From: an uncultured Planctomycetia bacterium | GTDB lineage: Bacteria; Omnitrophota; Gorgyraeia; Tantalellales; Tantalellaceae | DNA: 38,695 bases | NCBI GenBank assembly: GCA_964482475.1 | Contig: CAYZXR010000003.1 | Coordinates: 1 to 38,695 of the forward strand | Reading direction: 5' to 3' | Shown here: in pieces, positions 1,786-24,600 of the stretch | How the letters are laid out: every line of letters starts with the position of its first letter | Numbering within the stretch: position 1 is the first letter of the stretch | Made by a program: the position numbers and the translations under genes | Notes under the pieces: model-generated | What the model was told of the DNA's origin: nothing | Databases searched by the model: none | The model's input: the letters and a program-made list of their open reading frames with translations, nothing else

Positions 1786-2625
1786 TCATATTTTTATCCT
1801 TTTTCTCGCTATCGTTGTTTTACTTACCCCCGGCAATAAGTACCTATTAAAAGTGAGTAGATGTAGAAAGGTTGCCAGCATGCCGAATGCGCACGAAGTG
1901 AATCTTTCTATTAAAGGCCTGGGGTAGGTCATTCCCCCGATATACGTACGAATAGTGTCAAATCCGATTTTTTCAAGCAAACGTTTGAGCGTTTGCGGCG
2001 AAAAATCCGTAAGATGTGATGGTGCATCGTACAATTTGTTAGGGATATTGAATGCTTTTAGCAGTGTAACGATTGGTGTGGTGTGCGGAACTCTTATGAG
2101 CAGGATACCTGAGGGTTTTAATATTCGGTAAACCTCTTTCAGATATCGGGCGGGGTTTGGGAGGTGTTCCAAGACATAGAACATTGTAATTATATCGAAC
2201 TCGTTGTCTTGATACGTTTTTTCGAATAATATCGAATTCGAGACGGACAGACCTTTGTTCTTAGCATATTGAACAGCCTGTTTGGAGAGATCTATCCCGT
2301 AGGTGTCCCATCCGGTATCCGAAGCAGCTTCTAGGAAAAACCCGTGAGCACAACCGATATCCAGCAGTTTTCCCCGTTTTTCCGTTTTGTTGATAATCTT
2401 CAATGATTCCCGAAAGACCCCGGACATCATTTTTCCCCATTCGGTGATATTGTCGGAGCTTTCTGGAAGATAATTCTGGTAGTGTTCTTCCAGAAAGTTT
2501 TCGCTAGGTTGAGGGTTTACATAAACAAGTCCACAGACATTACATTGGACGATGTTCCAGTCACCCTCTTTTTTTATGAGCCGAGTATCATCACTGTTGC
2601 AGATTTGGCACTTGATCTGTTCCAT
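1786..2625 (-). CDS. Class I SAM-dependent methyltransferase with N-terminal zinc ribbon (last gene of the cluster)
   Basis: 279 aa. CQIC..CNVCG, motif I LLDIGCAHGFF, FDIITMFYVLEHL, and DAPSHL. Paralogous in layout to 198..1163. Confidence 0.85.
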   Translation of the reverse strand: MEQIKCQICNSDDTRLIKKEGDWNIVQCNVCGLVYVNPQPSENFLEEHYQNYLPESSDNITEWGKMMSGVFRESLKIINKTEKRGKLLDIGCAHGFFLEAASDTGWDTYGIDLSKQAVQYAKNKGLSVSNSILFEKTYQDNEFDIITMFYVLEHLPNPARYLKEVYRILKPSGILLIRVPHTTPIVTLLKAFNIPNKLYDAPSHLTDFSPQTLKRLLEKIGFDTIRTYIGGMTYPRPLIERFTSCAFGMLATFLHLLTFNRYLLPGVSKTTIARKRIKI

Positions 2626-2630
2626 ATGGT

Positions 2631-3230
2631 CTATGTCAGATCCTCTATTTCAGAAACAACATCATTCTGGAAGTGTACGATCATTTCCCCAGTACCTTTG
2701 TTTTTGTTATAATACCATTGATTACTATCCATAACTTGATCAAAAGTATAATACCAGGCTTTTTGACCTGGTCCGATCCATGCCGGGCAGCCTCGGATTA
2801 TGTACACCTCATCTTTAGTCATACCCAGGCTGGGAACCATGCCTACAAACCGCCCCTTTGTTTTTTTATTCAGACCCTCTATTTGTAAACTTGCCACATC
2901 TTCCACAAAATATTTGTCATAATCACTTGAGCGAACTTCTAGTTTATACTTTCTTTCACCTCCAGGTAGATTAAACTTAATGTATTTTGTTCCTGCTCCT
3001 ATTATTACTACCTCTGTGCCAGCCGGAATACGTTGTCCTACGTTTGTCATATTATGAAAATAAATGGTTGAACCATTTGCTTTCAAATTTGATCGGGTAT
3101 ATGCCGTTTGTCCCACAAGCGCTTTCGTGTCAGATGCCAGAGAGTTTTTGTTACAAAGTCCAAAAACGAACGCTACACACAAAAATGCCGTAATAATTTT
3201 TTTCACTTTAACTCCTTTTTTGAAAAACAT
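2631..3230 (-). CDS. Secreted protein, paralog A, with BamE (SmpA/OmlA)-like C-terminal pattern
   Basis: 199 aa with an N-terminal hydrophobic signal. Shares Y..R.NLK..G..IYFHNM...IP.GT.V.I...YK...KYFV...GCPA.IG.G.K.W...WYYN...MIV.F.ND.VS.I with the next gene. Its ATG overlaps the upstream stop (TAATG). Confidence 0.6.
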   Translation of the reverse strand: MFFKKGVKVKKIITAFLCVAFVFGLCNKNSLASDTKALVGQTAYTRSNLKANGSTIYFHNMTNVGQRIPAGTEVVIIGAGTKYIKFNLPGGERKYKLEVRSSDYDKYFVEDVASLQIEGLNKKTKGRFVGMVPSLGMTKDEVYIIRGCPAWIGPGQKAWYYTFDQVMDSNQWYYNKNKGTGEMIVHFQNDVVSEIEDLT

Positions 3231-3802
3231 TATCGGTTCGTGATGTTTGAGACTTTATCATTTTTGAAGTTTACTATCATCTCTCTTCTGCGAGTATCCA
3301 GGTTGTAATACCAGGTGTTGCTTGCCATAAGCTCTTCAAGCGTTTTACCCCAGCTTTTTTCCCCGATACCAATGTAAGCAGGACATCCTTTAGACACAAA
3401 AACTTCGTTTTTAGGCATGCCCTCATAAATCTCCATGTCCTTTATGGCCGTTTTTGCCTTATCCCTCATGTCCTGCAGACCGATTTCATTTTTATTGTTT
3501 ACGAAATACTTACTATAAACATTACAGAGATCTGTTATCTTATAAGTTTTCTCACTGCCCTCTATTCTAAAACTAATAGTTTTTCCACTTGTCCCTTTTA
3601 TTGTCACAGGAGTACCCACAGGTATAATACCTCCCTCCTTACTCATGTTATGAAAATACACTATCCTACCCTTGTACTTTAAATTTGTACGCGTGATAAA
3701 CTTCTCGCCCTTAATGGGTGCGCCCTCAGCGGCAAAAGAAACATTTGAAAAAACGAACAAAGCACATAACAAACAAGTCATTACTGAAACAAATTTCTTC
3801 AT
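3230..3802 (-). CDS. Secreted protein, paralog B of 2631..3230
   Basis: 190 aa. Signal peptide ending SFA-AE. AGGAGG upstream of the ATG. Same conserved blocks as paralog A. Confidence 0.6.
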   Translation of the reverse strand: MKKFVSVMTCLLCALFVFSNVSFAAEGAPIKGEKFITRTNLKYKGRIVYFHNMSKEGGIIPVGTPVTIKGTSGKTISFRIEGSEKTYKITDLCNVYSKYFVNNKNEIGLQDMRDKAKTAIKDMEIYEGMPKNEVFVSKGCPAYIGIGEKSWGKTLEELMASNTWYYNLDTRRREMIVNFKNDKVSNITNR

Positions 3803-3837
3803 AATCTACCTCCTATTGATTTGTCCATAAAAGTTCT

Positions 3838-4356
3838 CTAACTTCGCATCTCGTTCATAATTTCTTTATCTGTCAGGATTTTTTCATTTGTGCGATAAAT
3901 TACTCCTCCTAATGCACGGCCAATAGTCCAGGCAGAAGCCTCATTAACTTTTATTTCTTTTGACCACGAATTGTCCGGTGTTGACAACAAAACAGTTATG
4001 TACATTCTTACGACAGCAAAACCTTGCACCGACCTCAAATTAGATATTTTTACCAGTAGTTCATTAGGACTTGTGGGGGATATTTCAACGCCTCTGTCTT
4101 GAAGTTCTTCTGACAGTTCATCAATCAAAAATTGTGTCCATTCATTAAGGTCCGCGGCCAAGCCGCTATAGAAACTAAGTGGTGTTGCATCAGGTTGGTT
4201 GTTGATAAGATTGACAGAGTAATCTTCAGGAAAGGGACCTACAAGATCGGTAGGAAGCTTCATTCCTGAACCGGGATGTAAAGTTGTGACACATCCCGAC
4301 AAGGCAATAACTGCAATACAAAGGATGATTGTCCTTAGCATGATAGATCTGAACAT
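3838..4356 (-). CDS. Lipoprotein of unknown function
   Basis: 172 aa. Signal peptide with lipobox ALSGC. AAGGAG upstream of the ATG. Confidence 0.65.
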   Translation of the reverse strand: MFRSIMLRTIILCIAVIALSGCVTTLHPGSGMKLPTDLVGPFPEDYSVNLINNQPDATPLSFYSGLAADLNEWTQFLIDELSEELQDRGVEISPTSPNELLVKISNLRSVQGFAVVRMYITVLLSTPDNSWSKEIKVNEASAWTIGRALGGVIYRTNEKILTDKEIMNEMRS

Positions 4357-4374
4357 GACTACTGCTCCTTTTTG

Positions 4375-4821
4375 TTAGGTTTTCCTCGAAAGGGCAAACT
4401 CCCCTTTTGCGACTGTTGTTTCGCCCACTTTGCTTTCAACGGAAACTTTTACCATATTCCCATATGATGCTATTACATTAGCTGTAGATTGCACTTCTTG
4501 TCCAGGGAACACAGGGGCTTTGAATTTCATATCCATGACACGCGACAGGTAAAACACCGCAGAATTCTCTTTAGATTTTTTTTCACTCGTTAAAGTGCTT
4601 GATGTGGCAATGCCTGCAGTTTGAGCCATGCTCTCTATAAGCAATACACCCGGAACTATTGGGTTCCCGGGAAAATGGCCTTTGAAATATTCTTCTTTTT
4701 CGTCAAATATTTTTGAGGTAGTCACACTGTTCTCATCTGCTTGTAAGATTTTATCTACAAATACAAACGGAGGCCTGTGTGGTAACAAATCTGCTATGTC
4801 AAATTTTGTCAGATCATTCAT
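4375..4821 (-). CDS. fabZ: 3-hydroxyacyl-ACP dehydratase, FabZ/FabA hot-dog family
   Basis: HRPPFVFVDKI and GHFPGNPIVPGVLLIESMAQ motifs. I place the start at the internal ATG 4821 (MNDLTKF...), which overlaps the ACP stop as ATGAATGA. The longer ORF to 4884 would overlap the ACP gene by 71 nt. Confidence 0.85.
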   Translation of the reverse strand: MNDLTKFDIADLLPHRPPFVFVDKILQADENSVTTSKIFDEKEEYFKGHFPGNPIVPGVLLIESMAQTAGIATSSTLTSEKKSKENSAVFYLSRVMDMKFKAPVFPGQEVQSTANVIASYGNMVKVSVESKVGETTVAKGEFALSRKT

Positions 4822-5083
4822 TTTCTTGCTGTTTTTCCCTAATATAATTGACCATGCTATCAACTGAAACAAGTACTTTTGCACCTACTCCCGCATCGGG
4901 GATCCTTACCTTGAATCTTTTTTCCAACGCGACAACCAGCTCCAGCGCGTCTATAGAATCCAGACCTAAACCTTCCCCAAAAATCTTATCATCATTTTTT
5001 ATTTCTTCCGGCGCAATCTTTAATCTCAAATCTTGTACCAGCATTACCTTTACTTCTTCGTAAAGTTTTTGACTTTGTTCCAT
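4814..5083 (-). CDS. Acyl carrier protein
   Basis: 89 aa. Phosphopantetheine site LGLDSIDALELV. AAGGAG upstream of the ATG. Confidence 0.9.
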   Translation of the reverse strand: MEQSQKLYEEVKVMLVQDLRLKIAPEEIKNDDKIFGEGLGLDSIDALELVVALEKRFKVRIPDAGVGAKVLVSVDSMVNYIREKQQENE

Positions 5084-5143
5084 ATTTACGGTGCTCCTTT
5101 CTATGAGTTTCGAACTAACATTTGAAGATATTATTATACCTCA

Positions 5144-5806
5144 TTATTGTTCCTTTGTGCTTCTATATTGTAACTTTTTTATAACAAAAGGTATTGTTCC
5201 CAGTGCAAACATGAGTAAAAGAGACAGCTTGAATCCCCAGCTATGCGGAAAGAAAATTCTGCTTCCAAAATACGTATATAACAAACTCATAGGAATGAGT
5301 GCTATCAAGCTTGATAAATAAAAATCTCTGAATTTCATTTGTGAGCATCCTGCCCAATAACTTACCAGATCCCAAGGCACATTAAAAAACCGCATACTTA
5401 AGACTGTGTTTTTGCCGTATAGTTTAATCCAATTGTCTAATTTTTGTGTCGATTTCCATGAACCGCATAAACGCTGTAGAGTCTCCTTTCCTGCCCATCT
5501 AGCGAAATAGAAACCTACACAGGTAGAAAAGGCTCCACCTATTACAACATATACCGTTCCCCAGACAGGGCCGAATAGCACTCCCGCTACGATTGAGAGT
5601 CCCAGTGTTGGTATGAAAAAAAGAAGCGGTCGAAAGCTGCAAATTAAAATGAAACAAACGGGAGCGACCGTTCCATATCGGGTGATGAATTCGGCAATTA
5701 CATCCGGGTTGAAGACCTTGTAGTATTTTATGCCTATAAATAACAAGACCACAATTACTAAAGATTTCATTAAAACAGATATTTTCAGATGCTTAAATAG
5801 GTTCAT
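5144..5806 (-). CDS. DedA / TVP38-TMEM64 family integral membrane protein
   Basis: 220 aa, multi-TM. VAGVLFGPVWGTVYVVIGGAFSTCVGFYFARWAGKE is typical of the family. Confidence 0.7.
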   Translation of the reverse strand: MNLFKHLKISVLMKSLVIVVLLFIGIKYYKVFNPDVIAEFITRYGTVAPVCFILICSFRPLLFFIPTLGLSIVAGVLFGPVWGTVYVVIGGAFSTCVGFYFARWAGKETLQRLCGSWKSTQKLDNWIKLYGKNTVLSMRFFNVPWDLVSYWAGCSQMKFRDFYLSSLIALIPMSLLYTYFGSRIFFPHSWGFKLSLLLMFALGTIPFVIKKLQYRSTKEQ

Positions 5807-5808
5807 TT

Positions 5809-7245
5809 CTACAAAATCACCATCTTTTTATTCGTTATTGACGAAACTGTTTTTAAAGCGGAAATGGCGACTGGAAGCATCCCTCCGCCAAAACCTGCCC
5901 AGTGTCCAACCACGTGAAAATTATTCATAATCTTACAGAGAACAGGAAGATTCATATAGAACCCTGCTTTTTGACTCCATCCATATGCAGCACCGTTAGA
6001 GTTGCCCGTGTATCTTAAGAAAGTCCCCGCATCGGCAACGCGCCGTAGAGTTATGCACTCTGAAAACCCCGGGATGATTTTATTTACAGATTCTATCAAG
6101 CTATCCGCTATTCTGTTCTTATCAACTAGCGCCCTCTCTTCACACAAAGGGCAGTGAATAATAAACGTATGACATCCGCGGGGAGCAGTTGTAGAATCAC
6201 TAATGGAAGGGATGCTCAACCCATAAGAGATATTTTCGTTTATGTTCAGCATATCATCTGTTTCATATGACGGAAAATATCCAATGCTACTGGCAATTTT
6301 GTGTTCATCAAGATCTATCTTAGCGCCGATATACGCAATTACAAAAGAACCGGAGACTTCCATATCTTTTATTTTTACTGCTTTTTTCTCTTCTATCTCG
6401 TCGCTGTCGATCATAGTGTTTACAACCGTTTTTAAGTCGATGTCTGAAATAATATGTTTTGCCTGAAATTCTTCGCCGGTTTCTGTTTTAATACCTATGG
6501 CTATGCTTGCATTCGAAAGTATCTTTTTTACGGTTTTACCATAAAAGACTATGCCGGAATTTTTCTCAATAACCTTAACTAAAGCCTCTGCCAGATTTTG
6601 CAGTCCACCCTTTACTCTGAATGCCCCTCCCTCAAGATAATGCATCAAAGTGTTTACCGCCAGAATAGAAGAAACCTGAGATGAAGGTAATCCTAAAAAA
6701 TTACAATAAGACGAAAGTGCCGCCTTAAGTTTCTTGTCGGAGAGGTAATCATCCAAAATCGCCGCAAAAGGTTTCCCCAGCCAGTTATAATGCGCGCTGA
6801 TGCCGTTGTTTGTGCCGCTAAAAATAGAAGCTACTGATTGTTTGTATATATTCCCCATGAGGGAAAATAAAGAATTGATCCCTTCTATCTCTGACGGGAA
6901 TAGTTTGCTGAGAGTCTCCTTATATTCGGTGGTGCTCCCAGGGATATCTATTGTGAAGTTGGGGAAAATATTCCGTCTTATGGGTTCAAGAGGAATAAAA
7001 TCCAGTTGTGTTTCAATGTCTAGCTCTTTTAAAATACCCCGTATGATCTCTCCGTCCTTCATAGCGCCCATAGCATCAACAGCTACGTCGAATGTATGTC
7101 CTCCACTCTTGAATGAGGCACAAAGCCCTCCCGCGTAGTTCTCTTTTTCGAAAATAGCGACCCGATACCCTTCTTTGGAAAGAAGGGCAGCTGAGATCAA
7201 CCCTCCGAACCCGGCACCTATCACTATGACATCATACTTTTTCAT
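5809..7245 (-). CDS. FAD-dependent oxidoreductase, phytoene desaturase (CrtI)-like family
   Basis: 478 aa. N-terminal Rossmann motif DVIVIGAGFGGLISAALLSKEGYRVAIFEKENYAGG. Length and C-terminal GHW..GGG pattern fit the CrtI/RetSat-like family. Confidence 0.8.
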   Translation of the reverse strand: MKKYDVIVIGAGFGGLISAALLSKEGYRVAIFEKENYAGGLCASFKSGGHTFDVAVDAMGAMKDGEIIRGILKELDIETQLDFIPLEPIRRNIFPNFTIDIPGSTTEYKETLSKLFPSEIEGINSLFSLMGNIYKQSVASIFSGTNNGISAHYNWLGKPFAAILDDYLSDKKLKAALSSYCNFLGLPSSQVSSILAVNTLMHYLEGGAFRVKGGLQNLAEALVKVIEKNSGIVFYGKTVKKILSNASIAIGIKTETGEEFQAKHIISDIDLKTVVNTMIDSDEIEEKKAVKIKDMEVSGSFVIAYIGAKIDLDEHKIASSIGYFPSYETDDMLNINENISYGLSIPSISDSTTAPRGCHTFIIHCPLCEERALVDKNRIADSLIESVNKIIPGFSECITLRRVADAGTFLRYTGNSNGAAYGWSQKAGFYMNLPVLCKIMNNFHVVGHWAGFGGGMLPVAISALKTVSSITNKKMVIL

Positions 7246-7247
7246 CT

Positions 7248-7997
7248 TTAGGTGAGACCCCCGTCTATTGCCAATACAATCCCTGTAATGTAACTCGCTG
7301 CATCAGAAGCTAAAAATAGAACCCCACCTGAAATTTCTTCAGGCTTGCCGAAGCGTTTTAATGGAATCTTTTCTAGAAATGTCTCGCGTTTATCCGCCAG
7401 ATCTTTTACCATATCTGTTTCTATGAAACCGGGCGCGATTGTGTTTACTTGAATACCGTATGGTGCTAGCTCCAATGCTAAAGATTTCGTAAAACTTATC
7501 ATCCCTCCCTTTGAAGCGGAATAATTGGTTTGACCCGCGACTCCCTTTAAGGCACTGACAGAACTTATATTTATTATTTTGCCCGCACGTTGGCCGATCA
7601 TCATCCTGGAGACCCACTTACATATGTGATACAACCCCTTAAGATTAACATCCTGAACCAAATCCCAATCTTCTTCGCTCATCATTGCGAGATATACATC
7701 TCGCTTTAAACCGGCATTATTCACAAGAATATCAATGTGACCGTATTTTTCAGTAATTTCTGCCATCATCTTTTCAATGTCCTCTTTACTTCCTATGTCA
7801 GCACGCACTATCTCTATCTTGTGCCCCTGCTCCGTCAACTCTTCCTCCAAACTATGCGCCATTTTTTCACTTTTATTATAATTAGCTATAACTTGAGCAC
7901 CCGCTTGAGCGAAGGAAATAGCAAGAGCTCTTCCTATACCCCTACTGGCGCCCGTAATTAAAACAACTTTGTTTTCAAATTCTCCTATTCTTTTCAT
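7248..7997 (-). CDS. fabG: 3-oxoacyl-ACP reductase (SDR), FabG-like
   Basis: TGASRGIGRALA, NNAG and YSASKGG motifs. The start is moved to ATG 7997, which has AGGAGG upstream and overlaps the upstream stop as TGATG. Confidence 0.9.
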   Translation of the reverse strand: MKRIGEFENKVVLITGASRGIGRALAISFAQAGAQVIANYNKSEKMAHSLEEELTEQGHKIEIVRADIGSKEDIEKMMAEITEKYGHIDILVNNAGLKRDVYLAMMSEEDWDLVQDVNLKGLYHICKWVSRMMIGQRAGKIINISSVSALKGVAGQTNYSASKGGMISFTKSLALELAPYGIQVNTIAPGFIETDMVKDLADKRETFLEKIPLKRFGKPEEISGGVLFLASDAASYITGIVLAIDGGLT

Positions 7998-9373
7998 CAC
8001 TTGCCTCCTAAGTAGCCCCACAAAGGTCCATCATGATAGTATTTTCTCAAGATTTCATACATTTTGTCCGAACTTTTTATTCCCATTCCGGGAACAATAC
8101 ATTTAGGATTACCGCTCGCGAATTCTGAAACCTTTTTCAATAATGTATCGTGAGGAATATTTTTAGATAAATAAAAATGTGGTGTCAAAAGATCGTTTTC
8201 TTCAGAGATGATCTTTTCTTTGAGTGCCAGATTTTCCAGAGCGGTTCCGGGATAAATCCTTATTCCCACCATAGCTATAATCGCGTTACATTCCAGGCGT
8301 TCTATGTTATCAAACGCTTCCTGCAATGTTTCGATCGTTTCTCCCGGACCGCCGAACATAACATAATGAGCGTATTTTATTCCGGATTCTTTGCATAATT
8401 TTGAAGTTTTGAATACATCATCCAACGTAAAAGACTTTCCGAGTTGGGATAAAACCTTAGCAGACAGCGCGTCGGTTCCGAATTCGATGTTTTCGCAGCC
8501 TGATTTCTTCATAAGCTTTAACAAATCCTCGGTCATATTTAGCGGATTTGCGAAACAGCTCCATTTTGCGGTAAGTTTTTTCTTTATTATGCTTCGGCAG
8601 ATATCTTCCGCGTGGTCTGCCGGAAAATTAAAAATATTATCAACGAAGAAAAAATGGTTTATATTATATTTTTTGTGAGCCTGCTCTATTTCGTCAGCGA
8701 CAATTTCCGGGTCACGTAATCGGTATTTCTTACCTTCCAAAATCGGGTATGTGCAATAACTGCAACTAAATTGGCATCCGCGTTTGGTCTGGATGTTTCC
8801 CATGCCCCCGGAGGCAGAATAGAACTTATTATCTACCAAATCTCTATCAACAACATAATTGCTATTCTCTTCATGAGTTACTCTGTTTGTGTGTAGTTTG
8901 CCTTCTTTAACCCAGATTACGTTATCAATATTACTGAAATCTTTTTTGCCGAGTTCAATTGACCTAAGAAGTTCTGGTAGCGCGTTCTCTCCTGCGCCTA
9001 TAACGCCTATGTTGCAATTTAAGTGTTTCAGTAGTTTTTCCGGAAATATGGAAAAAGCTGAACCTCCTAAAATGACAGGAGCTTGTGATTGTTCGTGTAA
9101 ACTATCGATTGTTTTCTTGATATCAGTAAGATACGAAATTATTCCGGGATAACTGAGGTTGTCGATATTGCGGATCGAAGCACCTATTACATCAGGGGAA
9201 AACTCCGAAAAAGCTTTTTTGATAGTAGAAGCTATATCATAACTGGTACATAGGTCGACCATGCGTACTTCATGCTTTTCTCTTCGAAGGACTTCCGTCA
9301 AATACAGAATACCCAACGGTGCCACCGGATAAGGTTTTTGTTCCCTATTTACTGAAACTAATAAAATTTTCAT
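7997..9373 (-). CDS. B12-binding-domain (class B) radical SAM enzyme
   Basis: 458 aa. N-terminal MKILLVSVN...PLGILYL B12-binding-type domain and CX3CX2C motif KRGCQFSCSYCTY. ATGA overlap with the upstream gene. Confidence 0.85.
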   Translation of the reverse strand: MKILLVSVNREQKPYPVAPLGILYLTEVLRREKHEVRMVDLCTSYDIASTIKKAFSEFSPDVIGASIRNIDNLSYPGIISYLTDIKKTIDSLHEQSQAPVILGGSAFSIFPEKLLKHLNCNIGVIGAGENALPELLRSIELGKKDFSNIDNVIWVKEGKLHTNRVTHEENSNYVVDRDLVDNKFYSASGGMGNIQTKRGCQFSCSYCTYPILEGKKYRLRDPEIVADEIEQAHKKYNINHFFFVDNIFNFPADHAEDICRSIIKKKLTAKWSCFANPLNMTEDLLKLMKKSGCENIEFGTDALSAKVLSQLGKSFTLDDVFKTSKLCKESGIKYAHYVMFGGPGETIETLQEAFDNIERLECNAIIAMVGIRIYPGTALENLALKEKIISEENDLLTPHFYLSKNIPHDTLLKKVSEFASGNPKCIVPGMGIKSSDKMYEILRKYYHDGPLWGYLGGK

Positions 9374-13017: not shown

Positions 13018-13031
13018 CTTTTTTGTTGCTC

Positions 13032-14021: not shown

Positions 14022-14026
14022 AATCT

Positions 14027-17321: not shown

Positions 17322-18534
17322 CCAATTTCCTTAATATAACACTGCTATTTGATCCACCGAATCCGAACGAATTAGACAATACGGTTTTTATTTCTTTCTG
17401 TTCGGCCTTCTCTCCTACTATATTTAAGTTACAGTCCGGGTCAGGTGTTTCATAGTTTAGATTTCCTGGGACAATACTTCTATTAATCGCAATCAAAGAA
17501 AAAATCGCCTCGGCGGCGCCCGCGGCACCCAGCATATGTCCGGTCATGGGTTTTGTGGAGCTTACCGGTATTCTTCTGCCACCTTCACCTAAAGCGGAAA
17601 CAATCGCTGTTGATTCCATAGAATCATTGGCAAGCGTTCCCGTGCCATGCGCGTTAATATAGTCAATGTCTTCCGTTTTTATCCCAGTTGTTTCGGTAGC
17701 TGTTTTTATAGCCTCACTAGCTCCTTTTGCCTCGGGATCTGGACTTGTAAGGTGATACGCGTCTGACGTTTGACCAAATCCTATGATTTCCGCTAAGATA
17801 TGGGCTCCTCTTTCTCGTGCGTGATCCAGCTCTTCCACTACAAGAACACCTGCCCCTTCACCCAAAATTAATCCGCTTCTATTCTTATCAAACGGGCGGC
17901 ATTTTCCCGGTGTTATAAGCTGTAGTGAATTAAACCCGGCGTACGTAAACTCCGACATAACATCATATCCACCCGCAATAGCAAAGTTCTCATAACCGTT
18001 GCGTATCCTTCTGAAAGCAAGCCCCAGAGCGTTTGTCCCTGACGCACAGGCATTATTCAGAATAAGCGCTTCTCCCGCAAAATCAAATTTTTTGGCAATA
18101 TTCACAGCCTGATTACATGCAAGGTAATCTTTAAGAAATAGCGCTCTCTTTTTTTCATTTTGTTTTAATACATAATCCCTGTGAAACATCTGACCCTGTA
18201 ATGTTCCGCCCAATGTAGTTCCCAAATAAACAGGTGTTTTGGAAAACCGCAATTCATCTAAGTTTGCCGAAGCGGAGAAAAGAGCATCTTTACATGCGGT
18301 ATAAACAAGGTGCGTAGCTCTGTCCAGCCCGAGCTTTCCTTCTTCGTCAAGATCCATATCAATAAGGGAGTCTTGCACCACACCCCCATCTCCCGAAGCG
18401 AAGTTGTTTGTAGTAAAAGTTTTTATTTGGGACAATTTACTCTTTCCGTGAAGAAGTGAGTCGTACGTCGCATCAAGCCCTCTTCCCAGACTGGTTAATA
18501 TGCCCGCTCCTGTAATGACTACCCGCTTAATCAT
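17311..18534 (-). CDS. Beta-ketoacyl-ACP synthase (FabF/FabB family)
   Basis: 407 aa. Motifs NNACASGTNA, AHGTGT, GHMLGAAG and GFGGSNS. Start overlaps the upstream stop as ATGATTAA. Confidence 0.9.
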   Translation of the reverse strand: MIKRVVITGAGILTSLGRGLDATYDSLLHGKSKLSQIKTFTTNNFASGDGGVVQDSLIDMDLDEEGKLGLDRATHLVYTACKDALFSASANLDELRFSKTPVYLGTTLGGTLQGQMFHRDYVLKQNEKKRALFLKDYLACNQAVNIAKKFDFAGEALILNNACASGTNALGLAFRRIRNGYENFAIAGGYDVMSEFTYAGFNSLQLITPGKCRPFDKNRSGLILGEGAGVLVVEELDHARERGAHILAEIIGFGQTSDAYHLTSPDPEAKGASEAIKTATETTGIKTEDIDYINAHGTGTLANDSMESTAIVSALGEGGRRIPVSSTKPMTGHMLGAAGAAEAIFSLIAINRSIVPGNLNYETPDPDCNLNIVGEKAEQKEIKTVLSNSFGFGGSNSSVILRKLDEK

Positions 18535-19414
18535 CTTTCTTTTTCCAAAGGTTTGTAAAGTTATACCACTGGTCAGAATACTTCAATATGTACTGTTCAA
18601 AGATCCGGACTAATTTTTCAGTATTTTTCCGAATATCTTCCTCAGTATTATCGGTAAATTCCATTTCGACTATAGAATCAGCTATCGCTGTATACTTGCC
18701 CTGATCGTCCGATACAATAAAGGCGGGTATAATTGCCGCACCCGTGCTTTTGGCAAGTTGTACTGGTCCGATAGGGAAAAATGTTGGTTTTCCAAAAAAA
18801 TCGACTTTTACACCGCGCTGACCTTCATATCTGTCTATAAGCATTGCGACTATTTCGTTTCCCAGAAGAGCGTTTACGATATCAATAAAAAACAAAGAAT
18901 CTTTTTTAATGGTTATAGTTTTTATGTTTCGGGTTTTTCTGCTATTTTCCCGGATTTCAGCGACGCCTTTTATCTCATCCTGCGCGGTAATAACATTAAT
19001 GGGTATTCCCTTGTAACTAAAAAAGAGTCCCCCCAGCTCCCAATTGCCAAGATGTGCTGTTAAAAGGATGATTCCTTTTCCAGCGTTAAGCGCTTTACGA
19101 ATAACTTCTTCTCCTTGAAAAGAACTGAACCAATTCCCCAGCTTATCCATGTCTGCATGATTGAGTTTAGCCCAGTCGGCTATATATTCTCCGTAATTCA
19201 AAAAAATATTTTTTGTTGTCTTTTCTATTTTTTTGGGATCATTGTATATCTGAGCGAGGTTTTGTTTAACATTATCTCGAGCCTCTTTGAATAAATGGTA
19301 CCCCATAAGAGCACCCATTTTCGCCACGCCCCTGATAATACCTATCGGCAAAACTTTGGCAAGCTGAACGGCTGCTTTGTAGATATAATCTTTGTTCAAA
19401 AAATTTCTTTTCAT
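18527..19414 (-). CDS. LpxL/HtrB-type (lysophospholipid / lipid A biosynthesis) acyltransferase
   Basis: 295 aa. LLTAHLGNWELGG (HX4E catalytic box) and the overall layout of the Lip_A_acyltrans family. ATGA overlap. Confidence 0.8.
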   Translation of the reverse strand: MKRNFLNKDYIYKAAVQLAKVLPIGIIRGVAKMGALMGYHLFKEARDNVKQNLAQIYNDPKKIEKTTKNIFLNYGEYIADWAKLNHADMDKLGNWFSSFQGEEVIRKALNAGKGIILLTAHLGNWELGGLFFSYKGIPINVITAQDEIKGVAEIRENSRKTRNIKTITIKKDSLFFIDIVNALLGNEIVAMLIDRYEGQRGVKVDFFGKPTFFPIGPVQLAKSTGAAIIPAFIVSDDQGKYTAIADSIVEMEFTDNTEEDIRKNTEKLVRIFEQYILKYSDQWYNFTNLWKKKDD

Positions 19415-21741
19415 TTTTTTCTATCCATAATCATTAAAAATCCCGGCAAAACGAATAAAGACGCGAATAAACAAGCGCTTATCCCCACAACTGTAATTAT
19501 TCCTAACGAGATCAATCCATTATGTTTTGACAACATCAACGACCCAAATCCGACCATTGTAGTTAAAGATGTCAAGAGAACCGCTCGTCCTGTCTGTCGT
19601 ATCATAATACCTACATCTCTTTCATTATTCTCAAGGTACCGGTGCATCATATGAATACTGTCATCTATTCCCATTCCTAAAATAAGCGGAAACGCGATGA
19701 TGTTCATGTAATTAAACGTGACGTCAAAACTAACCATAAACGCGACGGTTACGCCAATACCGATCAGAAGCGGTACAATTGAAACAAGGACCAGTGAGGG
19801 TCTTCTGTAAATGCCAATTAAAACTGACAATAGTACAATCCCCACTAGTATCATAATATCCCTGACTTCTGTCTTAATCATCTTTTCCAGCGCTCCGAGC
19901 ATGAAACTGACGCCCGTAAGTTTTACTCCATCTGTATCGATAGCTAAAGATTCCCTTAAGGCCGCTATTTCGTCTTCTTCTACAATTCTTTTCTGAGGAT
20001 AGAGATACAAAACTGAATAATAATCTTTGTTCTCAGTCTCGATAAAAAATTTACTAAACAATATTTCCGGAAGAAATCGTTTTAATTCCGCATATGTGAC
20101 CTTTTCAGACGATTCTTCAGAACTCATGAGGAATAGTATGTCATCTTTCTTACCCGTAAGAAAATCGTATTCGTCCTGTTTTGTCTTGTCATTTTTCAGC
20201 TTTTGAAGAAGGATATCTATTCCGATTTCCGCATTTTTCTTCCCGGCTATCCTGCTTACCAATTGCCCTTTCTCTCCGGAAGAAGGAACATACTTAAAGA
20301 TGCTTTCATATCTTGTTATTGTGCCCGCATCCTTTAGATCTCGGATTTTAGGTGTAAGTTTTTCTAGAACCCTAACGTTTTTATCCGGATCTTTGTCTTT
20401 AGAATAAACCACTATCGGTTCATAGCAATTTCCGAACCTATCCAGAAGATCTTTTTGCAGTTTTATTGCCTGGTTTTCTTGAGAACTCATTGAGTCAAGA
20501 CCGTTATTGAATTGTGGCAGGCCGTATGTTGACAGTGCCCACAAACTGTATACAACTACTGCCATACAGCACAACCCAGCAATGCCTTTTCCATGTTTCT
20601 GTATTTTTTTTGCAAGATGATCAAGATTGAACAACCCCGTGCCGGATGTATCATTCTTCTTAACTATTTTTCCCCGCAAAATAAGAAGCGCCGGCAGGAT
20701 GAAGATCATTGTTATTAAACATACAATCACACCCGTTCCGATTAAGAACCCGAATTCTGATGCACCCCTGAAATTTGTAAGGAGCAGTGAATAAAACGCT
20801 AAGGATGTTGTAATGCAGCTAAAAAAGATGCTCTCACCCGTGGTAACGATTGTATTCTGTATGGCTTCAATAACACTCTTACCGTAAGATATCTCGAACG
20901 AATACCGATTATAAATATGGATGCCAAAATCTACCCCTAACCCGGCTAGAATAGCCGCGAAAGCAACAGTCAGCATATTTAAAGATCCTATGACAAAAAA
21001 CGCTATGGCCACCGTCCATATAACCGCCATAACTAGCGGTATGCTTATGAGGAAAATAGCATCTATTCTCTTGAATACCAGAGAAAAAATCAAAAGTATG
21101 GCTATAAAAGAAGCGACGACTGTTATTTTTAAATTTCTCTCCATATTTCTGGCTTCTTCCAGAGCAATAACGTATCCACCGGTATAATTAATGTTTAACT
21201 CTCTGAGTTCTTCGTTTTTATCCTTGGTCTGACGTTCAATATCTCGCACTTCCTTCATTATTTTGCCGGAAAACTCGATGTCCCCGGAAGGTTGCACTGG
21301 AAAAATGAACATCAGAAAAGCGTCTTTATTTGGAGATTGATACTGTATGTATTCCACGTCAAATTTGTCTTCAACACGCCGTGCGTTTTCATTAAAAGAG
21401 AGCTTTGGCAGCTTGTGATCAACCTTTCTAACTATGTCGGACTCTTTTAGTAGAAGCGAAAACTCATCCATAAATTTTCCGACTTGAACATCGCTATATG
21501 CTCCATTTTTTTCAATAACCACTATAAGATTGTTATTAAAATCAAACACTTCTGCGGCTTCATAAAAGTCATTCGCCACTTTGTTGTTTGAGGGAAGGAG
21601 GTGCATGATATTTGTATCTAATTGTATTTTCCATGCACATGTAACAGCAAGCGCGCTAATAAGGACAGCACCTATCAAAATTCCTATCCAGAATTTCGCG
21701 ATGAACTTCGCCACGGATTGTAGTATTCTTTTTTGAAGCAC
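19411..21741 (-). CDS. MMPL / RND-superfamily predicted lipid exporter
   Basis: 776 aa with two blocks of about 5-6 TM helices separated by large soluble loops. GTG start 4 nt after AAGGAGTAG. Confidence 0.85.
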   Translation of the reverse strand: MLQKRILQSVAKFIAKFWIGILIGAVLISALAVTCAWKIQLDTNIMHLLPSNNKVANDFYEAAEVFDFNNNLIVVIEKNGAYSDVQVGKFMDEFSLLLKESDIVRKVDHKLPKLSFNENARRVEDKFDVEYIQYQSPNKDAFLMFIFPVQPSGDIEFSGKIMKEVRDIERQTKDKNEELRELNINYTGGYVIALEEARNMERNLKITVVASFIAILLIFSLVFKRIDAIFLISIPLVMAVIWTVAIAFFVIGSLNMLTVAFAAILAGLGVDFGIHIYNRYSFEISYGKSVIEAIQNTIVTTGESIFFSCITTSLAFYSLLLTNFRGASEFGFLIGTGVIVCLITMIFILPALLILRGKIVKKNDTSGTGLFNLDHLAKKIQKHGKGIAGLCCMAVVVYSLWALSTYGLPQFNNGLDSMSSQENQAIKLQKDLLDRFGNCYEPIVVYSKDKDPDKNVRVLEKLTPKIRDLKDAGTITRYESIFKYVPSSGEKGQLVSRIAGKKNAEIGIDILLQKLKNDKTKQDEYDFLTGKKDDILFLMSSEESSEKVTYAELKRFLPEILFSKFFIETENKDYYSVLYLYPQKRIVEEDEIAALRESLAIDTDGVKLTGVSFMLGALEKMIKTEVRDIMILVGIVLLSVLIGIYRRPSLVLVSIVPLLIGIGVTVAFMVSFDVTFNYMNIIAFPLILGMGIDDSIHMMHRYLENNERDVGIMIRQTGRAVLLTSLTTMVGFGSLMLSKHNGLISLGIITVVGISACLFASLFVLPGFLMIMDRKK

Positions 21742-21742
21742 C

Positions 21743-22801
21743 CTACTCCTTTGCCTTTTTTCTTATCCATTCAACACAATTTGATATAGCCGTCCAGGGC
21801 CAATATAAGATTGTTATTCCGATGATTATCATAGAAAGAGCGTACCATCCAATAAATTTAGGTAAAGAAAACAACACACAGTAAGCTATCGTAAAGCTAA
21901 TAAAGGTTATGATGATTGAGATTACGTGTTCCTTGTGTATTTTAGGCTCTTTTGTCAATATGATGGTTGTTTTTTTGGATGACTGGAGACCCAAAACGTT
22001 CTCAACTGTTGTAAAACTAAAATGCTGAAAAAGTTGTTCCGCTTTAGTTGGCGCGACCTTGCAGTTGAAGTAATGCATAAATTTCCTATTGAGCGGTAGA
22101 TCTATCATAGGTTGTTGTTTGTCAAACTCCCAGGAATGAAGGTAGAGCATTACCGGCATTTTCCTTTTATTAAGGGTTTTAAAAAAGTGGAACACGTTAC
22201 AATACGGAACAACTCTCAGTGGCAGACCGCCCGAGAAAGGTACACGTTCAGCAAACATCCGAAATGTTGACAGTGGAAACTCCCATATCTTTCCATGTTT
22301 TGTTTCTATTTCTCCCGGAAGAACTCCAAATTTTTTTCCACTTAAATGACTAATTGGGTTCGCGCTGCTATCATATTCAAATCCATTTTTCTTTAATATA
22401 TCTAGTGCCCATCTGGTTTCTTCCCTAAGAGACCATTCGGGTGCGCGATATCCTCGCACCTTTTTTCCGGTTATAGCTTCTATAACATTTTTTGATCGTT
22501 TGAGATCCTCTTCAAAAACTTCAGGTGTCATATCAAATATGCGGCGATGAAAGTAACCATGGCTTGCAATTTCATGTCCCCTATCCGATATCTTCCTTAT
22601 AATATCAGGGTCTTTCTCTGCTATATATCCAACAACAAAAAAAGTTGCCGATATTTTATATTTATCCAGCAAAGTAAGAATCTTATCTACGTCTTCTTCC
22701 AAACGCGTAGAATATTTATCCCACTCATTCACCCAATTATCTTTTTCAATACCACAGATGTGATACCAATCTTCTAAATCCACAGAAATAGCGTTAACCA
22801 T
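21743..22801 (-). CDS. NodB-type polysaccharide deacetylase with C-terminal membrane anchor
   Basis: 352 aa. SVDLEDWYH, FFVVGYIAEK and GHEIASHGYFH motifs. The last ~65 aa form two hydrophobic helices. Confidence 0.8.
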   Translation of the reverse strand: MVNAISVDLEDWYHICGIEKDNWVNEWDKYSTRLEEDVDKILTLLDKYKISATFFVVGYIAEKDPDIIRKISDRGHEIASHGYFHRRIFDMTPEVFEEDLKRSKNVIEAITGKKVRGYRAPEWSLREETRWALDILKKNGFEYDSSANPISHLSGKKFGVLPGEIETKHGKIWEFPLSTFRMFAERVPFSGGLPLRVVPYCNVFHFFKTLNKRKMPVMLYLHSWEFDKQQPMIDLPLNRKFMHYFNCKVAPTKAEQLFQHFSFTTVENVLGLQSSKKTTIILTKEPKIHKEHVISIIITFISFTIAYCVLFSLPKFIGWYALSMIIIGITILYWPWTAISNCVEWIRKKAKE

Positions 22802-23960
22802 GGAAGCGTCTCATCTCCTCACTTGTGCAATAGTCTATCAATGACAACATCTTCCCTAAAACAGGAAGAGGGTCTGATAAAGAAAGAATCGCGTAATGCA
22901 TATCCTTCTCATGAAATTTAAAAAACTCCCAATCAATATTATGTTTTCTTATCATGCTGGAGGCAAAGCTCAATAAATCTCCCTGTATTAACCATCTCAG
23001 TTTTATTCCTTCCCTATAATCAAAAGCATCGTCCACGTCTCCTTTAAGAGCTAGCTGATGCAGCATAGCTGGGAAATTTATACCGGATTTAACCGCTAGA
23101 TGCAATGAACCCCATAACCTTGGGTTTATCTCCATAAGTTTAGGTATATTATCTCTCATATCGATCTTAAACTCGATGTTCGCTACCCCATACCATCCTA
23201 TAGATTCCAATATTTTCTCAGCCAGTGCTACCAACTCAGGGTATTTAACAGACACAGTATAAGTACTTACCCCTCCGGTTATTGGATACTGCCTTATTTT
23301 TTTATGCACAAAAGCTCCGCGCATCTTATTGTTTTTATTGAAGATAACCGATACCCCGTAATGTTCATCACCAGGAACGTACTCTTGGAGCAGAAAATCA
23401 CCGTATTTTTCGAATAGTCCTTCCTCAAGATGTTCAAAATCTTCGTTTTTGTGTATGTAGTGTATACCTCTGGCTCCGGTTCCAACGCGCGGTTTCAAAA
23501 CCAGAGGACATTGAAGACCATCTAGATTGTTTTTAATATCACTAAAGGATGACACACACCTCGTTTTAGGCACGGATACCTGTACCTTAGCAGCCTCTCT
23601 GAGTACTTGAAATTTGTCTCTAGCATATAAAATCTTCTCATAATCAGGAATAGCGACCTTGATAAATTGTTCCACTTTATCCTTATTCTTGGCTATTAAC
23701 AGTGTTGTTTCTTCCTCAGGGGTGATCAGTACATCGTATTTGTCCCTTTTGACAGTTTTTTCAAGCCAGGCAAGAAATTCCGCTGATTTTCGCCTAACTG
23801 AGGGGTAAACATACTTCCGACATGCATATCTTGAAAATAATGCCGGAGCAAGCGGCGTCCGCTCACCTGTACCTATTTTTAGGTCTTTATCCGCTAAAGC
23901 CCTAATCACAGCAAGTGTTTTACGCCAATATCCATCTGTTACAAAAACCTTGTTTGACAA
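22794..23960 (-). CDS. ATP-grasp carboxylate-amine ligase family protein
   Basis: 388 aa. PLVLKPRVGTGARGI, LLQEYVPGDE and ANIEFKID..KLMEINPRLWGS motifs. TTG start preceded by AGGTGA. Confidence 0.75.
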   Translation of the reverse strand: MSNKVFVTDGYWRKTLAVIRALADKDLKIGTGERTPLAPALFSRYACRKYVYPSVRRKSAEFLAWLEKTVKRDKYDVLITPEEETTLLIAKNKDKVEQFIKVAIPDYEKILYARDKFQVLREAAKVQVSVPKTRCVSSFSDIKNNLDGLQCPLVLKPRVGTGARGIHYIHKNEDFEHLEEGLFEKYGDFLLQEYVPGDEHYGVSVIFNKNNKMRGAFVHKKIRQYPITGGVSTYTVSVKYPELVALAEKILESIGWYGVANIEFKIDMRDNIPKLMEINPRLWGSLHLAVKSGINFPAMLHQLALKGDVDDAFDYREGIKLRWLIQGDLLSFASSMIRKHNIDWEFFKFHEKDMHYAILSLSDPLPVLGKMLSLIDYCTSEEMRRFHG

Positions 23961-23989
23961 ACTTTCACCTATTCTTATTGTTTGTGCAG

Positions 23990-24172
23990 TTAATGTTGGT
24001 TTGCCTGCTTTGACCGGATATACTTATCCACTTCCTCTTGGGCAATCCTGTACCCACCGCGCCGGCCTTCTTTGTAAGCATGAATCGTCTTATTGCGGAT
24101 GAGTTCTCTCACGTATTCTTCACTCACACGTAAGATATCAGCCACCTCTTTGGTAAGTAATATTTTTTCCAT
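23990..24172 (-). CDS. Excisionase/MerR-type helix-turn-helix DNA-binding protein
   Basis: LLTKEVADILRVSEEYVRELIRNKTIHAYKEGRRGGYRI fits the excisionase-family HTH pattern. I prefer the ATG at 24172 (AAGGTGG upstream) over the ORF start at 24196. Confidence 0.65.
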   Translation of the reverse strand: MEKILLTKEVADILRVSEEYVRELIRNKTIHAYKEGRRGGYRIAQEEVDKYIRSKQANQH

Positions 24173-24241: not shown

Positions 24242-24269
24242 ATTGTATTACAAATAGGCAGAAGGTCAA
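24242..24269 (-). promoter_or_regulatory. Candidate sigma70-type promoter for the HTH gene and possibly the cluster
   Basis: The minus strand reads TTGACC, a 16-nt spacer, then TACAAT, about 70 nt upstream of ATG 24172. A CAATGnnCATTG inverted repeat overlaps the -10. The host phylum is unknown, so this is tentative. Confidence 0.3.
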
Positions 24270-24511: not shown

Positions 24512-24600
24512 AAGAAGGTTCCGCAAGCCGAAGGTTCCGCAAGCCGAAGTCGCCGCGAACCGTCCCTATTGTTTTTAATAAAGCATCTGGGATAACTAAT
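24512..24600. repeat. Short tandem and dispersed repeats shared with 26100-26412
   Basis: GAAGGTTCCGCAAGCC occurs twice in tandem and again at about 26375-26390. GCGAACCGTCCCTATTGTTT...CATCTGGG resembles 26124-26173, a partial RAYT terminal repeat. Confidence 0.7.

Follow-up and report, generated by a model that had tools for sequence, protein, structure and literature searches.

Contig CAYZXR010000003.1, from an uncultured bacterium of the Omnitrophota, carries 22 consecutive ORFs within positions 1786–23960, all on the minus strand, that combine fatty acid synthase (FAS) and polyketide synthase (PKS) parts with four radical S-adenosylmethionine enzymes (rSAMs) and a set of envelope proteins. 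We call the whole analysed stretch of 38,695 bp (GC ∼40%) the window. The operon is a four-rSAM variant of the cluster type represented in Kuenenia by kuste3335–3352, and does not count as evidence for ladderane synthesis. Judging from its gene content, it most likely encodes, in our moderately confident reading, an aryl-polyene-like type II PKS/FAS line dependent on an acyl carrier protein (ACP), whose unsaturated acyl chains would be tailored by rSAMs, anchored in the envelope and exported. An earlier note on this DNA drew attention to the combination of families. That combination is not new: it was described in 2009 (PMC2649909), and antiSMASH ‘ladderane’ calls in Omnitrophota were published in 2023 for metagenome-assembled genomes (MAGs; PMC9902471). 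New here are the conserved Omnitrophota architecture with its four rSAMs and the fact that a single operon holds both lineages of B12 rSAM. Our literature search found no paper describing this architecture, and no report on the TIGR04072 family or on the product of this cluster type.

Every substantial ORF of the window lies on the minus strand. Overlaps of −110, −71 and −25 nt in the ORF list vanish once the first plausible start past the upstream stop is taken, and with realistic starts the spacing at the 21 junctions of the operon runs from −11 to +60 nt. The earlier note gave about 23 genes, although its own list also adds up to 22. All the start/stop overlaps that it listed were located at the junctions (ATGA three times, TGATG, TAATG, TAAATG, ATGAATGA, and ATGATTAA twice). 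Positions 23961–24172 are a non-coding leader, and in all 677 nt without coding sequence lie ahead of the first gene. A promoter-like site at 24269–24242 (-) does not rise above shuffled expectation, a terminator scan returned nothing above chance, and an Rfam search of the window found no riboswitch or other RNA element. Twenty-two same-strand genes with tight junctions, in the same order on independent contigs, are far beyond chance. Because of this junction structure and the identical order in five related loci (L001, L013, L002, L019 and L022), the 22 genes are predicted to behave as a single functional unit, which agrees with the earlier proposal. Pfam and NCBIfam searches of the window proteins confirmed every family in its content list, from the ACP to the ATP-grasp ligase, and family searches across all 38.7 kb likewise found no FabD, FabH, enoyl reductase or thioesterase, the four absences it had reported. 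The genes, from first to last, are as follows.

22794..23960 (-): ATP-grasp ligase, the operon's first gene (Pfam ATPgrasp_Ter 1.7e-15, ATP-grasp_3)
21743..22801 (-): polysaccharide deacetylase with DUF3473, kuste3351-type (Pfam)
19411..21741 (-): MMPL/HpnN-like resistance-nodulation-division (RND) lipid exporter (Pfam MMPL 1.6e-34)
18527..19414 (-): LpxL/HtrB-type (Lip_A_acyltrans) acyltransferase (PF03279 6.5e-38)
17311..18534 (-): ketosynthase (KS) KS2, kuste3349 position (Pfam; Cys-His-His intact in the active-site alignment)
16299..17321 (-): CLF2, a partner of 340 aa resembling a chain-length factor (CLF) (Pfam ketoacyl-synt, N-terminal only; Cys replaced by Tyr)
15236..16309 (-): SPASM/twitch rSAM ‘SPASMa’, a lineage-specific extra (Pfam Radical_SAM and SPASM)
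14027..15235 (-): ketosynthase KS1, kuste3346 position (Pfam; Cys-His-His intact)
13032..14021 (-): CLF1, a CLF-like partner of 329 aa (Cys replaced by Val within an ‘SNGVT’ motif)
11704..13017 (-): PaaK/FlxY-type adenylate-forming ligase, putatively for starter activation (NCBIfam FlxY 481.5 bits)
10674..11711 (-): SPASM rSAM ‘SPASMb’, kuste3343 position (Pfam Radical_SAM and SPASM; start at the ATG of ATGATTAA)
9370..10677 (-): B12-binding rSAM ‘B12b’, a lineage-specific extra (Pfam B12-binding, Radical_SAM and DUF4070)
7997..9373 (-): B12-binding rSAM ‘B12a’, kuste3342 position (TIGR04072)
7248..7997 (-): FabG-type ketoreductase (KR) (TIGR01830 306.8 bits, above the cutoff of 297.75; start at the TGATG overlap)
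5809..7245 (-): CrtI/carotenoid-isomerase-family flavoenzyme (PDH) (Pfam Amino_oxidase)
5144..5806 (-): DedA/VTT-domain membrane protein (Pfam VTT_dom 5.6e-24; weak UptA-like match)
4814..5083 (-): ACP (Pfam PP-binding; the serine in GLDSID is present)
4375..4821 (-): FabZ-type 3-hydroxyacyl-ACP dehydratase (DH) (NF000582 118.9 bits, above the cutoff of 113; start at the ATGAATGA overlap)
3838..4356 (-): lipoprotein (lipobox LSGC; homologs adjoin SPASMa in related loci L023 and L024)
3230..3802 (-): secreted paralog 2 (signal peptide; C-terminal BamE-like domain, sub-threshold)
2631..3230 (-): secreted paralog 1 (C-terminal BamE-like domain, sub-threshold)
1786..2625 (-): Zn-ribbon plus class I SAM methyltransferase (MT), the last gene, kuste3338 position (Pfam Methyltransf_23 1.2e-26)

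By family content and gene order, the operon is a member of the kuste3335–3352-type cluster, because B12a scores above the TIGR04072 cutoff and the window proteins find positional best matches in other members. Genomic context was taken for five TIGR04072-type proteins. Window proteins were compared by BLASTP with loci from a MAG of a deltaproteobacterium (L003), a contig of Dissulfurispiraceae type (L007) and a contig of 973 kb (L008), and the Kuenenia gene order comes from Table 2 of PMC4790861. The three comparison loci share the order ATP-grasp, hypothetical protein, deacetylase, small ORF, KS, CLF, UbiE-like MT (in some), KS, short CLF, ligase, SPASM rSAM, TIGR04072 rSAM, KR, ACP, DH, ACP synthase (ACPS), MT, MMPL, PDH and family 2 glycosyltransferase (GT2). 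This equals the Kuenenia list of glycosyltransferase, PDH, MT, FabZ, ACP, FabG, two rSAMs, phenylacetyl-CoA ligase, a protein of unknown type, FabF, MT, non-canonical FabF, FabF, ACP and a deacetylase-like protein (Javidpour et al. 2016, PMC4790861 Table 2). Window proteins correspond to the comparison loci position by position, most with 43–54% identity. B12a reaches 413.9 bits on TIGR04072 (rSAM_ladder_B12, ‘lipid biosynthesis B12-binding/radical SAM protein’; curated cutoff 360), and its L003 ortholog reaches 410.7 bits. A SPASM rSAM and a PaaK-type ligase lie directly upstream of the B12 rSAMs, and the run ligase–SPASMb–(B12b)–B12a matches L003, L006, L007 and L008 apart from the inserted B12b. 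Two KS genes, each with a Cys-less partner, are likewise accompanied by KR-ACP-DH, MT, PDH, MMPL and DUF3473 deacetylase genes. The resemblance to the set proposed from the Kuenenia genome, which the earlier note had raised, therefore holds: the core is co-linear with kuste3335–3352-type loci and B12a belongs to TIGR04072. Pfam found neither a GT2 of the kuste3335 type nor an ACP synthase in the window, where an LpxL-type acyltransferase stands instead.

The correspondence extends across the operon. Against L003, L007 and L008, identity is 50–54% for the deacetylase, 48–51% for KS2 (with the first KS of each locus), 48–51% for SPASMb, 47–60% for the ACP, 47–50% for the KR, 44–49% for the ligase, 43–45% for B12a, 42–46% for the MT, 41–43% for KS1 and 33–36% for PDH. 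When L002 is included, the ranges become 48–56% for SPASMb, 43–51% for B12a and 42–51% for the MT; across the related loci they are 44–57% for the ligase and 47–60% for the ACPs. Orthologs of the ATP-grasp ligase head related loci (51% in L002; 37–42% in L003, L007 and L008, with 37% in L008). CLF2 is 36% identical to the CLFb of L002 and 27–30% to the CLFa of L003 and L007. The LpxL-type acyltransferase is 43% identical to that of L002 and is absent from the core of L003, L007 and L008, where a GT2 occurs.

The four-rSAM arrangement is not a peculiarity of one contig. Scanning one genome per GTDB species with a SPASM rSAM identified a sole relative, JADHWG010000026 of ‘Candidatus Omnitrophota bacterium BS750m-G21’ (L001) from 750 m in the Black Sea, which has the same gene order, near-identical ORF lengths and 70–84% amino-acid identity. 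Fragments 99–100% identical to the window are present in ENA and JGI metagenomes, and a metagenome scan with a SPASMa alignment yielded 19 true relatives (39–100% identity). In related contigs the gene after SPASMa is always KS1, and sufficiently long ones continue on the same strand with CLF1, ligase, SPASMb, B12b, B12a, KR, PDH, ACP and FabZ. All four rSAMs were seen in five loci from two lineages, whose proteins are only 32–67% identical to those of the window. Since the block is kept in every contig long enough to hold it, the rSAM quartet is a conserved part of the unit, co-inherited with the KS genes, and not the separate unit that the earlier note had allowed for. Named PDH homologs (30–75% identity) are nearly all ‘Candidatus Omnitrophica’, with a few Nitrospirota at ∼36%; those from Omnitrophota are 43–75% identical. 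Close homologs of B12a that carry a name are likewise nearly all from Omnitrophota. No anammox proteins are among the top matches of PDH or B12a, and an anammox origin of the DNA was rejected.

All four rSAMs contain the CxxxCxxC motif. SPASMa has CNFACQFC at residue 14 and five C-terminal Cys residues, and SPASMb has CNLRCVYC and nine. B12a belongs to a large family, TIGR04072, in which 6,809 of the 8,000 candidates scored reach E ≤ 1e-20 and whose named members are from Omnitrophota, Kiritimatiellia, Nitrospirota, Deltaproteobacteria and Dissulfurispiraceae. After TIGR04072, its best models are BzaD (248 bits), Trp 2-C-methyltransferase (160 bits) and PhpK (139 bits). Because these are its nearest characterised relatives, B12a is probably a C-methylase. 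By contrast, B12b, SPASMa and SPASMb reach no curated NCBIfam family. Searching 1.84 billion representatives exhaustively placed B12b in a family with 2,483 clusters at E ≤ 1e-30. It is the best-conserved protein of the operon, with 83–84% identity in the close group versus 67–80% for the others, and 61–67% in the distant group versus 32–60%. Conservation in both lineages suggests an unusually strong constraint on an enzyme without a curated family. A locus for ribosomally synthesised and post-translationally modified peptides built on the SPASM enzymes was considered and rejected, because SPASMa and SPASMb are always embedded among KS, CLF and ligase genes. L008 carries a further B12-binding rSAM gene just upstream of its ATP-grasp gene (1–170; 469 aa, cut by the locus end), so recruitment of B12 rSAMs to this cluster type may have recurred.

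Examination of the aligned ketosynthases shows that KS1 and KS2 keep Cys-His-His, Lys and Phe, whereas CLF1 and CLF2 lack the histidines. The KR carries the YSASK and TGASRGIG motifs and scores 265 bits on the FlxB model, and FabZ retains HFPGNPIVPG and LIESMAQ with their His and Glu. From such motifs, the KS, rSAM, ACP, FabZ and KR enzymes look functional. The ligase scores 481.5 bits on NCBIfam FlxY (cutoff 520) and 204–213 bits on PaaK. The CLF partners, the ligase and the lack of FabD, FabH and FabI led us to reject an ordinary FASII operon.

The tailoring and export genes are less sharply classified. The deacetylase scores 269.8 bits on TIGR03006 (XrtA-system), just below the cutoff of 276.2; PDH scores 131 bits on crtI_fam and 129 bits on carotenoid isomerase, both below cutoff; and the MMPL protein, with ∼11 transmembrane-like segments, scores 279 bits on an HpnN-like NCBIfam model, also below cutoff. 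The lipoprotein has no Pfam or NCBIfam match. The two secreted paralogs are 40% identical, both have a signal peptide, and they form part of a small family that recurs in related clusters. Its four members (the window pair, L002 14572–15138 and L007 11432–12010) share an invariant GCP motif, and all four give C-terminal BamE/DUF2845 matches, sub-threshold, with a best E of 2.8e-4. A profile search of this family against the PDB found no match, and the predicted structure of paralog 2 gave no usable fold (predicted local distance difference test score 36). Kinship of the methyltransferase with a crystallised anammox methyltransferase was considered and dropped, there being no such PDB match.

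We conjecture the following pathway. The FlxY/PaaK-type ligase would adenylate a carboxylic-acid starter, possibly aromatic, and load it onto the dedicated ACP; KS1-CLF1 and KS2-CLF2 heterodimers would then extend it with malonyl units from the housekeeping FabD. FabG and FabZ would process every round, yielding one or two chains. Because no enoyl reductase is present, each chain would remain (poly)unsaturated. The CrtI/CrtISO-family flavoenzyme may isomerise, saturate or desaturate double bonds, and B12a may C-methylate, as its characterised relatives BzaD and Trp 2-C-methyltransferase are methylases of sp2 carbons. For B12b, SPASMa and SPASMb we can only guess at oxygen-independent C–H functionalisation, e.g. 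methylation, dehydrogenation, C–C cross-linking or cyclisation, and the class I methyltransferase may add an O- or C-methyl group. The LpxL-type acyltransferase would shift the chain from the ACP to an acceptor, a glycolipid or phospholipid, and the deacetylase and ATP-grasp ligase would remodel the acceptor's head group, perhaps amino-sugar-like. Translocation of the lipid would fall to DedA and the MMPL/HpnN-like pump, and its delivery to the outer membrane perhaps to the lipoprotein and the two BamE-like proteins of the periplasm. Envelope targeting is proposed because of the lipobox, the signal peptides and the sub-threshold BamE-like matches.

Several points weigh against this pathway. 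No member of the cluster type has a known product. E. coli expressing the Kuenenia homologs made no novel fatty acids, and neither of the two CrtI homologs from Kuenenia showed phytoene desaturase activity (PMC4790861). The window contains neither a thioesterase nor a gene for an aromatic starter (tyrosine ammonia-lyase (TAL) or chorismate lyase). Scores below curated cutoffs for the ligase, PDH, deacetylase and MMPL protein make their substrate assignments weak, and what B12b, SPASMa and SPASMb are proposed to do is guesswork, as none of them reaches a curated family.

Aryl polyene (APE) and flexirubin clusters offer a biochemical precedent, and they raise the question of whether the product is simply a pigment of this type, with the rSAMs merely replacing oxygen- or SAM-dependent ring methylation under anoxia. 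In the APE precedent, two conjugated chains are esterified to an N-acetylgalactosamine-phosphate-glycerol anchor, and their export uses an RND pump together with Lol-like carriers and a lipoprotein (bioRxiv 10.1101/2020.12.19.423268; PMC8253772). A tblastn search of plasmids with the ligase found a flexirubin-type locus on the Aureispira plasmid NZ_AP026868.1 (L010) that contains TAL, FabG, KS, ACP, thioesterase, KS/CLF, deacetylase, LolA, a fused MMPL/lysophospholipid acyltransferase/MT, an FAD oxidoreductase and a ligase. The fusion gene (L010 1–3879) is annotated as a trifunctional MMPL transporter, lysophospholipid acyltransferase and SAM methyltransferase, functions that are encoded by three separate genes in the window. 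Identity to the window is 40% for the ligase, 42% for the KR, 38% for the ACP, 31–34% for the KSs, 26% for the acyltransferase, 25% for PDH and 23% for MMPL; the deacetylase match is weak. The Aureispira locus has no counterpart of the window's rSAMs, ATP-grasp, DedA, MT or secreted paralogs.

The APE core as defined by Grammbitter et al. 2020 (KS, CLF, ACP, DH, KR and RND transporter; bioRxiv 10.1101/2020.12.19.423268) is complete in the window, with one ACP and one DH. The core signature that the earlier note had recognised thus stands, from the FlxY-like ligase (481 bits, near its cutoff) and FlxB-like KR to the KS/CLF, DH, ACP, acyltransferase and MMPL genes. It had further listed the rSAM quartet and a CrtI-like enzyme as additions to that core. 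The rSAMs are indeed additions, together with ATP-grasp and DedA, but the CrtI-like enzyme and the deacetylase do not distinguish the operon, because a PDH-like oxidoreductase and a deacetylase are found in the flexirubin-type locus as well. This sharing, and the relationship of B12a to aromatic C-methylases, would suit a plain pigment. We nevertheless consider a plain pigment unlikely. The 23–42% identity to the flexirubin-type locus is much below the 43–54% to kuste3335–3352-type loci. The window's DH is a FabZ by NF000582 and matches the ApeP-like model of the ApeI/ApeP dehydratases only at E = 0.009 (16 bits, cutoff 27). The window has no TAL/UbiC, DUF3261 homolog or second ACP, no family match to a thioesterase (ApeK) or to LolA/LolB carriers (ApeL/ApeN), and no BLAST match to the Aureispira LolA or thioesterase. 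Moreover, four rSAMs exceed what methylation needs, and an antioxidant pigment is hard to rationalise in dark, permanently anoxic habitats.

The operon might instead be the main pathway for membrane fatty acids or lipid A-like acyl chains, making oxygen-independent unsaturated, branched or mid-chain-methylated chains for ordinary membrane lipids. Conservation over deeply diverged Omnitrophota lineages (PDH 43–75%, and the conserved gene block) would fit a housekeeping role, as would the LpxL-type acyltransferase, FabG and FabZ above equivalog cutoffs, and lipid handling by DedA and MMPL. We find this role rather doubtful, since the window lacks FabD, FabH, FabI and Acc, and the Cys-less CLF partners and adenylating starter ligase are PKS-like rather than FAS-like.

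A third alternative is that the operon makes a true ladderane, or a close carbocyclic lipid, in a non-anammox phylum, with B12b isofunctional with kuste3608 and KS1-CLF1, PDH, FabZ and ACP in the roles of anammox Cluster I. Cluster I, the main ladderane candidate, is kuste3603–3608 (amxACP, amxFabZ, amxFabF2, amxFabFmut, PDH and B12 rSAM), and the two Cluster I loci that we compared (L004 and L005) have the order ACP-FabZ-FabF2-FabFmut-PDH-B12 rSAM. Homologs of five of these six families lie in the operon. Window and Cluster I proteins are 36% identical for FabZ, 38–39% for KS1, 27% over 255 aa for CLF1 and 30% for PDH, and the Brocadia/Kuenenia rSAM is 34% identical to B12b over 423 aa (E 4e-76); the rSAM and PDH pairs align full-length. 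By these alignments, the similarity is family-level only, at 27–39% identity. The window ACP has no BLASTP match to the amxACPs of L004 and L005 at E ≤ 1e-3. The Cluster I rSAM is 25% identical to B12a and scores 88 bits on TIGR04072, i.e. it is not a member. Because it matches B12b and not B12a, the operon holds both B12 rSAM lineages that Kuenenia splits between loci.

For the ketosynthases, the reference structure is PDB 9s5h. We recovered the sequence of its chain B from an alignment and used it as a query. The best 120 matches were all from Brocadiales (Brocadia, Jettenia, Kuenenia and Scalindua) at ≥64% identity, and 9s5h is therefore taken to be the amxFabF2/amxFabFmut heterodimer of Granatino et al. 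2026. Its chains are the best PDB matches of KS1 (9s5h_B, 288 bits, marginally over 268 bits for B. subtilis FabF) and of CLF1 (9s5h_C, 1e-13), and CLF1 shares one specific resemblance with amxFabFmut, the Cys-to-Val change inside ‘SNGVT’, despite 27% identity. These matches, the rank of B12b as the most conserved operon protein and the anoxic habitat are what a ladderane reading can draw on. Against it, the amxFabF2 orthologs form a tight Brocadiales-only clade, and KS1 and KS2, at 37–39% identity, fall outside it. KS2 prefers B. subtilis FabF, and CLF1 is ∼80 aa shorter than amxFabFmut (about 412 aa), its C-terminal half being unrecognised. A specific alliance of KS1/CLF1 with the anammox heterodimer is thus marginal and was set aside. 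The ACP has no detectable similarity to amxACP.

The rSAM comparison points the same way. The best 150 of the 2,483 B12b relatives score 310–446 bits each versus ∼237 bits for the anammox enzyme, so at least 150 representative clusters are nearer to B12b than that enzyme is. Twenty-six of these 150 are closer to the anammox rSAM than B12b is (up to 39% identity), and B12b itself stands 29th when the compared sequences are ranked against that rSAM. A specific orthology of B12b with kuste3608 was accordingly rejected, because its nearest 150 exclude the anammox enzyme; B12a was likewise rejected as the Cluster I rSAM ortholog on its 25% identity and the 88 bits on TIGR04072. Neither a kuste3608-type rSAM nor a kuste3607-type PDH ortholog was found in the window (34% and 30%), and the closest syntenic relatives are Candidatus Omnitrophota MAGs rather than the Brocadiales hosts of Cluster I.

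Rattray et al. 2009 found the kuste3335–3352 loci of Kuenenia syntenic with Desulfotalea psychrophila, Geobacter and Pelobacter, and reported that Desulfotalea, one of these hosts of the syntenic cluster, does not make ladderanes (PMC2649909). The type occurs in Desulfobacterota, Nitrospirota and Kiritimatiellia, none known for ladderanes, and is therefore no indicator of them. Cluster I has no experimental link to ladderanes either (PMC10139942, PMC13459092). A ladderane product is therefore very improbable, and the operon cannot be classified as a ladderane cluster. We give equally little credence to the narrower idea that B12b and the Cluster I rSAM share a cyclising, C–C bond-forming chemistry on an ACP-bound unsaturated chain to give a ladderane-related carbocyclic lipid; if true, one operon would unite Cluster I with kuste3335–3352, and ladderane-type chemistry would reach beyond anammox bacteria.

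The aryl-polyene-like, rSAM-tailored envelope lipid remains the reading that we favour. The operon places the cluster type in another phylum, Omnitrophota, and its marker family TIGR04072 is very common in anaerobic bacteria, with thousands of homologs. In this operon, kuste3335–3352-type genes stand together with an unrelated ACP and with homologs from five of the six Cluster I families, which argues that these families serve one pathway. The present evidence does not make ladderane biosynthesis directly testable; it does single out the strongly conserved second B12 rSAM, B12b, as a target for enzymology. Should the product be identified, it would stand for a new class of envelope lipids that are polyketide-like and tailored by rSAMs without oxygen, and it could serve as a biomarker for Omnitrophota in anoxic waters and groundwater.

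The flanks of the operon hold other features. Immediately upstream of the lipid operon region lies a giant ORF of 3,881 aa (27028–38673 (-)), rich in RHS repeats (Pfam 2.5e-81) and with one fn3-like stretch; the protein resembles a secreted toxin. An IS200/Y1-transposase-like gene (25292–25966 (-)) scores 50 bits on the model for REP-associated tyrosine transposases, under the cutoff of 80. It is flanked by perfect 20-nt inverted repeats (25292–25311 versus 26047–26066 and 26277–26296), and a segment of ∼65 nt in this region is duplicated at 230-nt spacing. A CCGAAGGTTCCGCAAGCCGAAG motif is repeated around this gene, at 24512–24565 and 26373–26410. Downstream of the operon, a second Zn-ribbon plus class I SAM methyltransferase (198–1163 (-)) is 26% identical to the operon's last gene, from which it is set off by spacers of 135 and 274 nt and a 70-aa ORF (1438–1650).

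Four groups of known systems bear comparison with the operon. As with the rSAM enzymes that tailor lipids (the hopanoid methylases HpnP/HpnR, HpnJ, GDGT-MAS/Tes and the cyclopropanase Jaw5), its B12-binding and SPASM-type rSAMs are encoded beside lipid genes and presumably act on inert or conjugated carbon chains without oxygen. The four rSAMs of the window nevertheless lie under all cutoffs for these known lipid families (HpnJ 110–117 bits, HpnR 79–95 bits). Ketoacyl-derived lipids modified by rSAMs have so far been limited to jawsamycin and the hypothetical ladderane case (review PMC13459092). With Cluster I, the operon has five of six families in common, including a KS with a Cys-less partner and the same Val and motif in CLF1; it differs in its dissimilar ACP, its shorter CLF1 and its KSs outside the Brocadiales clade. 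With the APE and flexirubin loci (E. coli apeA-R, Xenorhabdus APELs and Bacteroidota flx), it shares a type II PKS without enoyl reductase, an adenylating starter enzyme, KS/CLF, KR, DH, a SAM methyltransferase, an acyltransferase to a lipid anchor, an RND/MMPL exporter and lipoprotein or periplasmic carriers. Those loci are without rSAMs, ATP-grasp and DedA, whereas the window has no second ACP and no gene for TAL, a thioesterase or a LolA/LolB-like protein.

The kuste3335–3352 type comes nearest. Relative to L003, L007 and L008, the window inserts B12b between SPASMb and B12a, and places SPASMa between the KS-CLF pairs, where the relatives have a UbiE-like MT or nothing. Relative to the type as a whole, an LpxL-type acyltransferase replaces GT2 and ACPS is missing; DedA, a lipoprotein and duplicated BamE-like secreted proteins are added; MMPL and PDH are relocated; and the phylum, Omnitrophota, is a different one. 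What the operon has in common with the type is the same core order of deacetylase, KS, CLF, KS, short CLF, ligase, SPASM rSAM, TIGR04072 rSAM, FabG, ACP, FabZ and MT, with PDH and MMPL also present and an ATP-grasp gene that heads L007 and L008 too.

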